Shown here piece by piece: positions 12,515 to 27,446 of a stretch of DNA of 64,000 nt. How positions within the stretch are numbered: position 1 is the stretch's first letter; each line of letters opens with the position of its first letter. Below the pieces are notes generated by a model. The model was not told where the DNA came from and did not search any database. It saw only the letters and a list, made by a program, of their open reading frames with translations. A program made the translations under genes and the position numbers. The stretch comes from an uncultured delta proteobacterium. Lineage in GTDB: Bacteria; Myxococcota_A; Polyangia; Haliangiales; Haliangiaceae. Location of the stretch: assembly GCA_963772655.1 (NCBI GenBank), contig CAVYYE010000003.1:2801341-2865340 (forward strand), in the 5' to 3' direction.

Positions 12515-13861
<1,347 letters not shown>

Positions 13862-23416: not shown

Positions 23417-25468
23417 ATGCGTAGATCGCTGCTGACCGCCGTCGTCACCGCCGCTGCTGTCTGGGGATGTTCCTCGAGCCCGAAGAAGATCCCGCCGGGA
23501 CCACCGCAGCCACCGGTCGGTGATGGCTCGGCCACCGCCGACCACGACGTGCCGCCGGATACCGGGCACGTCGAGAAGCGCACGCTGACCGAGGACACGC
23601 CGAGCACCACCGTCACCGGCAACAAGTTCATCGCGCCGGCGGGATGGCGCATCTGGGTCGACGGTCCGGCGACCGTGCTCGAGCCTCCCGAGGGCGGCTC
23701 GATGATCGCGCTGGTCGATGTCCAGGCCAAGGATTCGGAGGCGGCGCTCGCGGCGGCGTGGGCGGCGATCGAGCACCCGCCGAAGTGGAAGGTGCTGAAC
23801 CACACCGAGACACCGGACGCCAACGGGTGGAGCCACAACACGGGCTACGCCTACGATGTGCCCCCCAACGCCAAGCGCGTGGTCGCCGCCCACACGGCAT
23901 TCGCCAACGGCACGTGGACCGTGGTCCTGATCGACCTGGCGCAGGCGATCGCCGAGAAGCGTGGCGGCCAGCTCGGCGTGCTGTTCGGGCGCTTGCTTCC
24001 CAAGGGTGAAGAGGTCGAGTCGTTCGCGGGCAAGCAGCCCCACCCACTCGACAAGGCGCGGATCGCGGAGCTGTCCAAGTGGATCGAGGGCGCGCAGAAG
24101 CTGATGGACGTCGAGGGCGTCGGCCTCGGCCTGATCGACAAGGGCAAGGTCGTGTTCGCAGGCGGGTTCGGTGTTCGCACGCTCGGCAAGCGCGCGAAGG
24201 TCGATGCCAACACGCGGTTCATCATCGCGTCGAACTCGAAGGCGCTCACCACGCTGATGCTCGCGAAGCTGGTCGACGAGAACAAGCTGACGTGGGACAC
24301 GCCGGCGACCAAGCTGTTGCCGGAGTTCAAGCTCGGCAACGCCGACACCACGAAGCAGGTGCTGGTGAAGCACCTGATCTGCGCGTGCACGGGGATGCCC
24401 CGCCAGGATCTCGAGTGGCTGCTCGAGTTCAAGAACCTGACGCCGAAGGGCGTGCTGACGGCGCTGGGCAACATGCAGCCGACCAGCAAGTTCGGCGAGC
24501 TGTTCCAGTACTCGAACGTGATGGCCGCGGCGGCCGGCTTCCTCGGCGGGCACGTCGCGTATCCCAAGCTCGAGCTCGGCAAGGCCTACGACAAGGCGAT
24601 GCAGACGCGCGTGTTCGGTCCGCTCGGCATGCGGTCGACCACGCTCGACTTCAAGAAGGCGCAGCGCGGTGACTACGCGATGCCGCACTCGTTCGATATC
24701 GATCTGAAGCCCGCGCTCGCGGTCCACGCACTCAATTACTCGGTGATCCCGGTGCGTCCGGCGGGTGGCGTGTGGAGCACGGTCAACGACATGCTCGAGT
24801 ACGTCCAGATGGAGCTCGCCGACGGCAAGCTCCCCAACGGCAAGCAGTACGTCTCGAAGGAGGCCCTGCTCGCGCGGCGTGCGCCGCAGGTCGCGGTGTC
24901 CGAGGACACCACCTACGGCATGGGCCTCATGGTCAACACCCGCCACGGCATCCAGGTCGTCAGCCACGGCGGCGATCTGATCGGCTACCACAGCGACATG
25001 ATCTGGCTGCCCGAGTTCGGCGTCGGTGCCGTGATCCTCACCAACAGCGATCGCGGCAGCACGATCCGCAGCCTGTTCAAGCGCAAGCTGCTCGAGGTGC
25101 TGTTCGACGGCAAGCCCGAGGCCGACGCCCGGCTCGCCGCCGCCGACAAGAACTTCCGCGAGACCTACAAGGTCCAGCGCAAGCTGATCGAGGTCCCGGC
25201 CGATGCCGCCGAGGTCGCCAAGCTCGCCGCGCGCTACACCAACCCGTCGCTCGGGGAGCTCGCGGTGATCCACAAGGGCAAGACCACGACGTTCGACTTC
25301 GGCGAGTGGAAGTCCGAGGTCGCATCGCGCAAGAACCCGGACGGCTCGGTGTCGTTCCTCACGATCGCCCCGGGGATCACCGGCCTGGAGCTCGTCGTCG
25401 GCACCGGCGACAAGAAGACGCTGGTGATGCGCGACGCGCAGCACGAGTACACGTTCACCGCGCGCTGA
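23417..25468 (+). CDS. Class C beta-lactamase-family serine hydrolase (peptidase S12-like) lipoprotein
   Basis: Lipobox AVWGC. IIASNSKALT (SxxK). YSN and HGG downstream motifs. 683 aa. Confidence 0.85.
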   Translation: MRRSLLTAVVTAAAVWGCSSSPKKIPPGPPQPPVGDGSATADHDVPPDTGHVEKRTLTEDTPSTTVTGNKFIAPAGWRIWVDGPATVLEPPEGGSMIALVDVQAKDSEAALAAAWAAIEHPPKWKVLNHTETPDANGWSHNTGYAYDVPPNAKRVVAAHTAFANGTWTVVLIDLAQAIAEKRGGQLGVLFGRLLPKGEEVESFAGKQPHPLDKARIAELSKWIEGAQKLMDVEGVGLGLIDKGKVVFAGGFGVRTLGKRAKVDANTRFIIASNSKALTTLMLAKLVDENKLTWDTPATKLLPEFKLGNADTTKQVLVKHLICACTGMPRQDLEWLLEFKNLTPKGVLTALGNMQPTSKFGELFQYSNVMAAAAGFLGGHVAYPKLELGKAYDKAMQTRVFGPLGMRSTTLDFKKAQRGDYAMPHSFDIDLKPALAVHALNYSVIPVRPAGGVWSTVNDMLEYVQMELADGKLPNGKQYVSKEALLARRAPQVAVSEDTTYGMGLMVNTRHGIQVVSHGGDLIGYHSDMIWLPEFGVGAVILTNSDRGSTIRSLFKRKLLEVLFDGKPEADARLAAADKNFRETYKVQRKLIEVPADAAEVAKLAARYTNPSLGELAVIHKGKTTTFDFGEWKSEVASRKNPDGSVSFLTIAPGITGLELVVGTGDKKTLVMRDAQHEYTFTAR

Positions 25469-25539
25469 GTCGCCCGCGCGCACGGATGCGCGGCGAGTGC
25501 CACCCGGATCGCCGAGGGACACGTGGCCTACTCGGAGTG

Positions 25540-25585
25540 GTTATAACGAACGTTATAACGGTCTCGTTATAACGTCCGTTATAAC
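25540..25585. repeat. Array of four 10-bp palindromes (G/C)GTTATAAC(G/C) spaced 12/14/12 bp: candidate operator or iteron-like binding-site array
   Basis: Copies at 25540, 25552, 25566 and 25578 (ggttataacg, cgttataacg, cgttataacg, cgttataacc). AT-rich palindromes in a 70% GC genome, intergenic. Confidence 0.8.
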
Positions 25586-25612
25586 CACCTCGACTAACTA
25601 AGAACGGATCCT

Positions 25613-26110
25613 GAAATTCAGGTTCCCGGTTCCGCTTCCCTACTCCCTATTCGTCAGAGCGGACCCGTAGCCTGCGCGAATGAAGGGCGAGAACATCGCG
25701 ACGCGACTGCTTGTGTTCGGGGCCGGGGTCGTTCGACTGTGCCGGCGACTGCCGGACGACGCATCGACCAAACACATCGCGCGACAACTGGTGCGGGCAG
25801 CGCGGACTTCATCCACAAGGTTGGAATCGCGAACAAGGAGCTGCGCGAGGCGCTGTACTGGTTGCAGCTGACCGAGGAGGCGGCGCTACACCATTCCTGA
25901 CAGAATCGTGCGGCTCGGAATCGGCGGCCGTCCACGCCTCGGTCCCTTCGGGATCGGAGGAAGCAGCGCCTCTACGTGCTCCCACAATGCGTCCGGAATC
26001 TCGGCGAACTTGGTCTCCACACGCCGCGTAGATCACGAGCGATCCGGCGCAGCAATCAGTGGCGACCGAATAGGGAACAGGGAAGCGGAACCGAGAAGGA
26101 GAACGGCCCG
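25613..26110. mobile_element. IVS-like relic: ~27-bp inverted repeats flanking a disrupted four-helix-bundle (TIGR02436-type) ORF
   Basis: IR-L ...cggttccgcttccctactccctattcg (25627..25653). IR-R cgaatagggaacagggaagcggaaccg (26067..26093). Reverse complements match at 25/27. Possible 7-bp flanking direct repeat agaacgg (25601-7, 26099-105). Confidence 0.5.
25680..25900 (+). pseudogene. Four-helix-bundle protein (23S rRNA IVS protein family) remnant, frameshifted with internal deletion
   Basis: Frame 1 reads ...KHIARQLVRAARTSS (matches QLxRAAxS...). Frame 2 continues DFIHKVGIANKELREALYWLQLTEEAALHHS*, the family C-terminal helix. The central NIAEG region is missing. Confidence 0.55.
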
Positions 26111-26189
26111 TTGTGATGTTTCGGATCGCCCGGCGCCCGGGATCTGCGGGTCCGGTGGTATCGGACACGCATCTCGGTGCGCACGCCAG

Positions 26190-27446
26190 CTATGGGGTGA
26201 CGCCGATCGCGCCGTCGATGTTCTCGAGTCCGCTGCCCATCGCGAGCGAGCCGACGTCCTCGACGGTGCCGTCGGCGTGAAACGCGAGCTGGCGCACCGA
26301 GACGTTCTCGGACACGAACACGCGACCCTGCAGGGTGCCGCGCTCGATCATCGCGAGGTCGCCGGGGAGCTGCGGCGATGCGCCGGTGTACGGGACCTCG
26401 CCGCGCACCTGCCAGGTGCCGCCGGCACCGTTGGCGTCGAGCACGAACAGCGCGTCGCCGAACGCGCTCGCGACGATCGCGACATCGCCGAACGGCGAGG
26501 CCACGATCGCTTCCGGATCCTCGACGTCGACCGAGCCGAGCGGCGTCATCGTGCCGCTGCCGGCGATCTTGACCGCCGCGACGCGGTTGTCGATGCCCGA
26601 GAACTGGCTGACGTCGCCGACCAGGAACGTGCCGCCGTCGAACGTCAGTGCGGTACCGCCGACGATCTGCATGTTGTCGGGGAACGCGTCGGCACCCGAC
26701 GTGCGGGTTGCCGCACCGTCGAGCGTGGCGAGGTGGACGTCGTCGCCGGCCGGCGAGTCGAGCAGACCCTTCGCCGCGACGATCGCGCCGCCGTCGGACG
26801 TGAACACCATCCCGCCCGGCAGGTCGGCCGCGGCGACGAGGCCCATGTCGGTCGGCGTACCGTCGCAGCCGATCGCGACCTCGTAGATGCCGCCGTCGTT
26901 GCCCAGCGTGTCGGGATCGATCACGTAGGCGCGGTCGCCGCGCGGATCGACGACCACGCGGTCGGCGTAGAACGATCCCTCGAGCACCGTGATCGGCGTC
27001 GGCGTGCCGTCGGCGTCGAGCCGGAACACGCCGAGCTTGCCGTCCTCGGTCGCGACCAGGCCGATCTCGCCGTCCGGGGTGAACGCGATCGTGCCGACCG
27101 CCGCGCGCCCGAGCGTGAACGTGCGCCCCGGTCGGGTCAGCTCGCCGGTCTGCGACAGGTCGAGGACCTCGAACGTATCGGCCTTGTTGCCGTCGGTGTC
27201 GTAGGGGTGCGCGACCACGACGTGACGCGCGCGATCCGCCGCCGCCGGCATCCGCGCGCACGCGGCCGGGCCGTCGTTGCCACCGTCAGGCGGCGGCATG
27301 TCGTCGGCGACCTCGGAGTGGCCACACGCCGCGCCGGCGAGCCCGATCGCTTCCAACGCGACCGCGATCGCGAGTCGCGACGTCGTTGTTGCCCGACTTC
27401 GCGTCCGCGGTCGACCTCCCGGCTGGGTGCCCGCTCGCGAAGTCAC
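26190..27446 (-). CDS. Lipoprotein with beta-propeller-like repeats, carrying conserved leader VTSRAGTQPGGRPR
   Basis: GTG start overlaps the stop of the 27443 gene (GTGA). Signal/lipobox LAIAVALEAIGLAGAAC. Repeated Gly/Asp-rich beta-strand blocks. The R-rich 26056..27261 ORF is an alternative frame of this gene. Confidence 0.65.
   Translation of the reverse strand: MTSRAGTQPGGRPRTRSRATTTSRLAIAVALEAIGLAGAACGHSEVADDMPPPDGGNDGPAACARMPAAADRARHVVVAHPYDTDGNKADTFEVLDLSQTGELTRPGRTFTLGRAAVGTIAFTPDGEIGLVATEDGKLGVFRLDADGTPTPITVLEGSFYADRVVVDPRGDRAYVIDPDTLGNDGGIYEVAIGCDGTPTDMGLVAAADLPGGMVFTSDGGAIVAAKGLLDSPAGDDVHLATLDGAATRTSGADAFPDNMQIVGGTALTFDGGTFLVGDVSQFSGIDNRVAAVKIAGSGTMTPLGSVDVEDPEAIVASPFGDVAIVASAFGDALFVLDANGAGGTWQVRGEVPYTGASPQLPGDLAMIERGTLQGRVFVSENVSVRQLAFHADGTVEDVGSLAMGSGLENIDGAIGVTP

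Follow-up and report, generated by a model that had tools for sequence, protein, structure and literature searches.

The unit at positions 25602-26128 of the window, by which is meant the whole 64-kb stretch of DNA analysed, very probably derives from a 1.34-kb insertion sequence (IS) of the IS5 family, which carries a four-helix-bundle (4HB) module, and is a dead copy with internal deletions. This identity follows from its end-to-end alignment with the complete elements at loci L033, L043, L055 and L057, with which it is collinear apart from three losses: 49 nt, 748 nt and the right tip. Three features assign the unit to the IS5 family. These are a DDE transposase, present in the intact copies and kept in the window as a pseudogene copy of codons 1-44 only; terminal inverted repeats at both ends, the left one being intact in the window and the right one lacking 4 nt; and the occurrence of multiple copies at unrelated loci (55 loci). 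A preliminary description, made from the sequence alone, had recognized a decayed selfish element with a 4HB gene as cargo. The decayed element is borne out, and profile searches confirmed the cargo as a TIGR02436/PF05635 gene. The same description had taken the element to lack a transposase, which proved wrong, as intact copies hold a full IS5-family DDE transposase and the window its first 44 codons. The window copy can make no transposase and is most likely immobile; being a relic, it should not be annotated as genes. Its features are collected in Table 1.

Table 1. Features of the window copy and spans of plasmid-borne 4HB modules
Feature	Sequence	Position	Strand	Basis or remark
Whole conserved unit (527 bp)	window	25602-26128		alignment and BLAST against intact copies
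TAA trinucleotide, preceded by C, abutting the left terminus	window	25599-25601	.	family termini with TAA/TTA flanks
Left outer terminal inverted repeat GAACGGATCCTGAAATTCAGG, IS5-type end	window	25602-25622	+	outermost in every full copy
Left inner arm, the inverted repeat of the preliminary description	window	25623-25653	+	array of ~7-nt units
4HB (TIGR02436/PF05635) pseudogene, ATG at 25680	window	25680-25886	+	profile match, homologue alignment
IS5-family transposase, first 44 codons, GTG start at 26020	window	25887-26020	-	PF13340, NF033580
Transposase gene 5' leader, right arm to start codon	window	26021-26066	-	kept in all transposase-bearing copies
Right inner arm, heptad array	window	26067-26106	-	contains the second 'agaacgg'
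Right outer terminal repeat remnant (...CCCGTTGTGATGTTTCGGATCG)	window	26107-26128	-	alignments to L033, L043, L055, L057, L056
Plasmid 4HB module	L064	2434-3003
Plasmid 4HB module	L065	2320-2985
Plasmid 4HB module	L066	2204-2925
Plasmid 4HB module	L067	1318-2078
Plasmid 4HB module	L068	1205-1991
Plasmid 4HB module	L069	1425-1853
Plasmid 4HB module	L070	1294-1877
Plasmid 4HB module	L071	1245-1913
Plasmid 4HB module	L072	1439-1874

Remnants of two genes in the window copy

The 4HB gene survives in two frames. Read from 25680, the first frame matches TIGR02436 weakly (profile positions 4-36, E = 0.089), and the +1 frame closing at 25900 matches profile positions 50-79 at 25.2 bits (cutoff 24). 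When both frames are joined, the score on TIGR02436 rises to 34.3 bits and a match to PF05635 appears, in agreement with the two-frame 4HB pseudogene of the preliminary description. The loss of its central NIAEG segment, also claimed there, holds as well: compared with intact copies, 49 nt are missing at ~25799/25800, a deletion which takes out TGGGANYEEARGAESR, the lineage version of NIAEG, and shifts the frame. Homologues of the window 4HB number 74, with identities of up to 76%; many are intact (132 aa or less), and the intact ones carry GGGANYEEARG, which contains the conserved N-x-x-E-[AG] motif of TIGR02436. The gene is cut at its 3' end too, after about codon 86 of 145, with profile positions 80-109 absent, and its frame continues directly into an antisense transposase fragment.

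This fragment, read on the minus strand from 26020 to 25887, encodes METKFAEIPDALWEHVEALLPPIPKGPRRGRPPIPSRTILSGMV, which is like the N-terminal DUF4096 domain of IS4/IS5 transposases. It matches PF13340 with E = 1.4e-5 (25.7 bits, below the cutoff of 34.3) and NF033580 with E = 3.6e-4, and it is 84-93% identical to the transposase N-termini in five related loci. As a query, the 44-aa fragment is too short and returned a single 74-aa fragment; a full-length query returned thousands. According to alignment and BLAST, 748 nt are missing between about codon 86 of the 4HB gene and codon 44 of the transposase gene, and a 6-nt overlap of the BLAST segments (25882-25887) indicates that this loss was a microhomology-mediated deletion. 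Two such deletions, of 49 and 748 nt, destroyed both genes, and the right tip was lost in addition.

Neither of the two deletion junctions was found in any other copy compared. Locus L056, which is nearly equal in size, was considered as the same derivative and rejected, since its junctions differ from those of the window. Such deletions therefore recur, and the window form itself has not been amplified. The window copy is thus a relic that stands alone and does not belong to an amplified MITE family.

Ends and surroundings of the window copy

The 27-nt inverted repeats on which the preliminary description was built (25627-25653 and 26067-26093) are real, with mismatches at 2 of 27 positions, yet they represent merely the inner, 7-nt-periodic part of longer ends. 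The arms as a whole pair 25623-25653 with 26067-26097, over 31 nt and with 90% complementarity. For the 27-nt core, no third match exists in the 64-kb window at up to 3 mismatches and no match occurred in 100 shuffles; similarly, BLAST detected no second copy of the element within the window. The left inner arm is composed of the units GGTTCCC GGTTCCG CTTCCCT ACTCCCT ATTCG, the number of which varies among copies, and the right inner arm of the heptads CGAATAG GGAACAG GGAAGCG GAACCGA GAAGGAG AACGG. Beyond the left arm, the outer terminal repeat contains a small palindrome, CCTGAAATTCAGG, and shares homology with GAGCGGATCCCAAAAC, the terminal repeats (16-17 bp) that bound transposase-only relatives.

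The bounds first proposed, 25601-26110, were too short, as conserved element sequence runs to 26128, where BLAST homology to L033 stops. The right end lacks the last GTTC (4 nt) and the TWA flank present in intact copies. The repeated 'agaacgg' (25601-25607 and 26100-26106), which had been read as a possible 7-bp target duplication, does not flank the unit: its first copy is the left terminus and its second lies inside the right end, so that it cannot be a target duplication. The left edge of the unit reads CTAA, and its TAA is probably what remains, on the left, of a 3-bp TWA target duplication whose right-hand copy has been lost.

Two convergent host genes enclose the unit with their 3' ends; the one of the beta-lactamase family ends at 25468, the other, an unknown gene, at 26190. 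A scan of 25400-26300 for promoters and terminators found none. The relic is harmless in this position. Next to it, a palindrome, GTTATAAC, is repeated four times at 25529-25596 (25540, 25552, 25566 and 25578) and gives a hairpin with 32-nt arms, which starts ~60 nt past the stop codon of the beta-lactamase-family gene and leaves 6 nt to the element. Elsewhere in the window (68% GC) the octamer is absent, ~0.12 copies being expected. No other copy of the element adjoins such a hairpin, which therefore does not belong to the element; it may represent an array of protein-binding sites, a hairpin of terminator type or some other small repeat.

The intact 1.34-kb element

Each of the complete copies (L033, L043, L055 and L057) contains a gene for a 263-aa transposase and a gene for a 145-aa 4HB protein, and the L033 copy measures 1338 bp. 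From the left, the order is TWA, the outer repeat GAACGGATCCTGAAATTCAGG, an arm, a leader of ~50 nt and the 4HB gene, followed by the convergent transposase gene, a leader of ~45 nt, the second arm, the outer repeat ...CGGATCGGTTC and TWA. The outer terminal inverted repeats of full copies are 16-19 bp long (GAAC[C/G]GATCC...) and stand in inverted orientation, and each arm, made of about five 7-nt repeats, lies directly inside one of them. The intact transposase scores 259.6 bits on NF033580 (cutoff 110), covering profile positions 4-258 of 258, and also matches PF13340, PF01609 and PF13586. The intact 4HB protein reaches 82 bits on TIGR02436, and its closest solved structure is 2rld_A (E = 4.9e-14).

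Pairwise comparisons among copies gave dN/dS values of 0.03-0.2 (4HB gene) and 0.05-0.15 (transposase gene), with dS of up to 0.7. By this measure both genes are under purifying selection, and both have been kept functional through a long common history. The two genes converge and overlap by 86 nt (L033 1209-1294, L043 718-803, L077 939-1024), an overlap which is kept at L077 despite a transposase identity of 69%. Constraint on the transposase gene may be all that preserves the final ~30 codons of the 4HB ORF (145 aa), given that copies without a transposase stop inside the arm, at 121-131 aa. The transposase could also be under antisense control.

The 4HB gene could also recall Avd, the accessory protein of diversity-generating retroelements, which belongs to the same PF05635-like fold family (PMC10053308), and the unit might then be the remnant of such a retroelement. 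This is barely credible: the four flanking genes scanned (beta-lactamase-family, two unknowns and endonuclease/exonuclease/phosphatase-family) include no reverse transcriptase, and the intact copies, which contain only the transposase and the 4HB gene, have neither a reverse transcriptase nor template and variable repeats.

In a living copy of the IS5-family element, an L033-type transposase would cut at the outer repeats, at ends carrying GAACGGATCC..., and insert the element at C-TWA-G, probably duplicating TWA. The 4HB gene together with the heptad arms forms a conserved second module of the element. In a transcript, the arms would pair into a long RNase III-type stem enclosing the ORF, so that the element could reside in transcribed DNA, and the 4HB protein would act on the heptad arrays.

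Copies in genomes and metagenomes

A scan of GTDB genomes with the arm core returned 8 loci, all from Kofleriaceae, Myxococcota or "Deltaproteobacteria" MAGs, and the same pattern gave 47 further loci in JGI metagenomes (soil), bringing the total to 55. Look-ups with the 4HB protein and the transposase fragment added 6 more loci, so that the census comprises the window and 61 loci, a few of which are one place sampled twice. The inverted repeats thus recur at other copies, the point on which the preliminary description had made its reading depend. Among the 62 entries, four are complete elements (L033, L043, L055 and L057), two have a full transposase gene with the 4HB gene damaged or missing, and one has a full 4HB gene and a damaged transposase gene. 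Five hold an intact 4HB gene and no transposase, two of them between core-type arms and the rest between diverged arms. Fragments only are found in eight, the window included. The remaining entries are ORF-less hairpins consisting of arms only, 6-272 nt apart (n = 21), several of which (such as L040, L046, L051 and L061) bear the same outer ends at either side, and single arms, mostly at contig ends (n = 21).

Wherever compared among loci, the flanks differ, and they match only between repeat records of one locus; the copies are therefore independent insertions. Transposase clusters of 258 and 137 member sequences were found on contigs of ~1-1.3 kb, as expected of a multicopy repeat. A comparison of all flanks with all loci yielded no empty site and otherwise duplicate loci only. 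The flank of L038, homologous to window positions 12549-12888, was considered as an empty site and set aside as unusable, its downstream side not being conserved.

Some loci show further arrangements. Two arms-only hairpins stand side by side at L015 2838-3111, and at L006 3600-3850 an internal tandem duplication of ~110 nt lies between the arms. Contig L052 starts in one element end (1-59) and ends in the other (1494-1552), both facing outward. The octamer TAGTATTA is present, inverted, at both L052 junctions and also flanks L057 (75-82). This arrangement could reflect two neighbouring copies or an assembly effect.

Relatives, ends and target site

The layout of the element extends to a more distant relative. 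At L077, where the identity is 69% for the transposase and 63% for the 4HB protein, layout and overlap are unchanged: a 264-aa transposase and a 145-aa 4HB protein are encoded between similar outer repeats (GAGCCGATCCGAAAAC) and arms of the 7-nt type. Relatives at 58-66% transposase identity are without a 4HB gene, and one of them, L073, measures only 880 bp. Both L073 and L076 are bounded by terminal repeats of 16-17 bp (GAGCGGATCCCAAAAC, with the variant GAGCCGGTCTCAAAAC in L076) and by perfect TAA duplications, and they have no arms. These armless, transposase-only relatives imply that the outer 16-19 nt are the canonical IS5 ends and that the arms came with the 4HB gene.

In the family as a whole, TAA or TTA adjoins 30 of 46 termini, and C precedes 22 of these 30, which fits a C-TWA-G target. 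TWA stands on both sides in six copies, with identical flanks in three of the six. Target duplication is accordingly clear for the plain relatives L073 and L076 and only probable for the composite element. The mismatched TWA pairs might stem from exchange among copies.

The joint presence of an IS5 transposase and a 4HB gene might in principle result from two unrelated events, that is, insertion of an IS5 element into a resident 4HB module followed by a deletion fusing the two. Nested insertion is known in the family, as the comparison of L011 with L012 reveals an IS3 element in the left arm of L011, and at L074 an IS5 relative lies beside an unrelated 4HB gene. This scenario is nonetheless highly improbable. 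The same order of outer repeat, arm, 4HB gene, transposase gene, arm and outer repeat is found at at least seven loci with unrelated flanks and persists in the lineage with 69% transposase and 63% 4HB identity, and outer repeats located outside both arms are not the product of a simple nested insertion.

The two loci just mentioned have particularities of their own. L011 (4700-5990) and L012 (1040-1090) are the same locus sampled twice; the IS3-family element of L011 (HTH_Tnp_1 and rve) has gone in so as to separate the left arm from the start of a 4HB module that lacks a transposase. L074 (1-1500) encodes a transposase 64% identical to that of L033 and has a left end of the same type (CTAA|GAACCGATCC). 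Its transposase gene adjoins an unrelated 4HB gene of the NIAEG type, with a hairpin of GTTGCC/GGTAAG-type arrays between them and an IS630-type gene beyond. This locus was not counted in support of the composite element, its 4HB being of an unrelated subfamily and the locus rearranged.

Among plasmid matches, the closest annotated relatives of the transposase are IS5 copies on plasmids of pathogenic Leptospira (12 matches, 51-55% identity), and no 4HB gene lies beside them in the two inspected (L062 and L063). In the genus Leptospira, 23S rRNA intervening sequences (IVSs) also encode 4HB (S23p) homologues (PMC4990558). The co-occurrence of IS5 and IVS 4HB genes in Leptospira may be a coincidence.

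Heptad arrays around 4HB genes on plasmids

A tblastn search of plasmids with the 4HB protein returned 29 records, nine of which were examined, from Nostoc, Anabaena, Planktothrix, Gloeocapsa, Candidatus Chlorohelix, Treponema, Bernardetia, Chondrinema and Monoglobus (six phyla). In all nine loci, the 4HB gene is bracketed by inverted arrays of tandem units whose best period is 7 nt, with a repeat score above every control position of the same locus. The arms of the Kofleriaceae element are likewise 7-nt periodic. The unit sequences on plasmids are lineage-specific (GTCGGAG, GTAAAAA, GATTTAC, GATTTTA, GAAAGTG, GATTAGT and CAGTnAn). A model in which a pentameric 4HB ring binds exactly five heptads was dropped, the unit numbers ranging from ~3 to >10.

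None of the nine plasmid 4HB genes has a transposase directly beside it. Several modules occupy positions within operons: between cas2 and cas1 (L067), between hsdS and hsdR (L072), between DUF1156 and Swt1-HEPN genes (L065 and L069), between an RND adaptor and a permease gene (L071), and between a helicase gene and an unknown gene (L068). The DUF1156-Swt1 slot is occupied on both a cyanobacterial and a Chloroflexota plasmid. Free-standing 4HB modules often occupy the gap between neighbouring genes of a single operon, defence operons above all, as if they were tolerated 'intervening sequences' of mRNA. The literature searched contains no description of the pairing of IS5 with 4HB or of heptad arms around 4HB genes, an absence which is no proof of novelty.

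Relation to 23S rRNA intervening sequences

The preliminary description had classed the unit as a relic of an element of the 23S IVS type. The likeness in architecture is real and seems general across phyla. The ORF is of the IVS type, that is, a PF05635/TIGR02436 gene, in the joined window frames as well as in intact copies. The predicted closing RNA stem has z = -2.9 in the window and z = -5.4 at the transposase-less L010. Descent from a 23S IVS, or transposition out of one, found no direct support, as no sampled copy lies in an rRNA gene. Rfam searches detected no family at gathering score in the 64-kb window, hence no rRNA gene, and no rRNA gene in 60 related loci, in which the sole match was an unrelated cobalamin riboswitch; membership among IVSs consequently fails on location. 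An IVS-borne copy for comparison was sought by tblastn of plasmids with the 4HB protein of the L074 type, which gave no match.

It may still be asked whether the unit is the relic of a transposase-less IVS-type element, either free-living or derived from rRNA, in which an RNase III stem surrounds the 4HB ORF and the transposase fragment is incidental. Units made of arm, 4HB gene and arm exist without transposase (L010 and L029, and L012 and L014 with diverged arms), the nine plasmid 4HB genes lie in inverted heptad arrays with no adjoining transposase, and RNA folding predicts that the arms close the entire unit. In the Coxiella IVS, RNase III cuts the stem at the start of tandem heptamers which precede the 4HB start codon (PMC4990558). 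This interpretation is nevertheless unlikely, as the transposase N-terminus, its leader and both IS5-type ends are arranged in the window exactly as in the intact 1.34-kb element, and no rRNA gene accompanies any of the loci searched. In addition, the arm sequences of the window place A-C mismatches, and not G-U pairs, at the two unpaired positions of the 4HB-sense RNA. These data favor a deleted copy of the IS5-family element.

Two accounts of the origin of IVSs, a 'remnant of a transposition event' and a 'mobile element whose ORF aids mobility', have not been decided between since the early 1990s (PMC4990558). An IVS-type gene within an inverted-repeat module is now tied to an IS with an intact transposase, many copies and derivatives, so that the question of the origin and mobility of IVSs becomes directly testable. 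A tentative extension, possible although doubtful at present, is that 4HB genes with heptad arrays constitute one class of small mobile cassettes spanning phyla, of which ORF-bearing IVSs are the members that landed in rRNA and the Kofleriaceae element is a cassette fused to an IS5 DDE transposase. If so, a concrete mechanism of mobility would be available for the first time for elements of the IVS type. The heptad arrays, in the form of either DNA ends or the RNA stem, would then be the suggested target of the 4HB protein, whose role would be to aid transposition or to make insertions in transcribed regions tolerable. A conserved 4HB gene under selection points to a function for a family without an assigned one outside diversity-generating retroelements.

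Comparison with known systems

The ORF-bearing 23S IVSs of Leptospira, Coxiella, Xanthomonas and Brucella share with the present element a PF05635/TIGR02436 ORF within stem-capable inverted repeats. The tandem heptamers beside the ORF start in Coxiella and the frequent decay of the ORF are further common traits (PMC4990558). In contrast to 23S IVSs, the element is located outside rRNA genes and possesses IS5 terminal repeats and a transposase, and its stem is a prediction.

The element resembles IS5 members of the NF033580 type, here presumably the IS427 group, in its DDE transposase with DUF4096 and DDE_Tnp_1, its short terminal inverted repeats and its TWA target, with perfect TAA duplications in the relatives at 58-66% identity. 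Its transposase is 54% identical to the Leptospira plasmid copies, the closest annotated elements being Leptospira IS5 and ISMch9. It differs from these IS5 elements by a second conserved gene (4HB), convergent and overlapping, by 7-nt arrays which bring its matching ends to ~55-70 nt, and by its length of 1.34 kb versus 0.88 kb for L073. Moreover, its transposase is a single ORF, whereas the Leptospira copies have two, joined by a frameshift.

Like MITE-type derivatives, the window copy is a non-autonomous IS derivative that retains ends, in a family which holds 21 ORF-less hairpins; unlike them, it has private deletion junctions and a damaged right tip. Avd shares the 4HB fold family and serves as an accessory to nucleic-acid machinery that is mobile or mutagenic (PMC10053308); the partner of the 4HB protein in the element is a DDE transposase, and that of Avd a reverse transcriptase.

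ISs with passenger genes are called 'tIS' in the ISfinder literature. The element corresponds to them in carrying a non-transposase gene between IS terminal repeats. It departs from them in that the 4HB gene has been kept across at least 30% transposase divergence and is under purifying selection, which makes it look like an accessory component of the element and not like accidental cargo.
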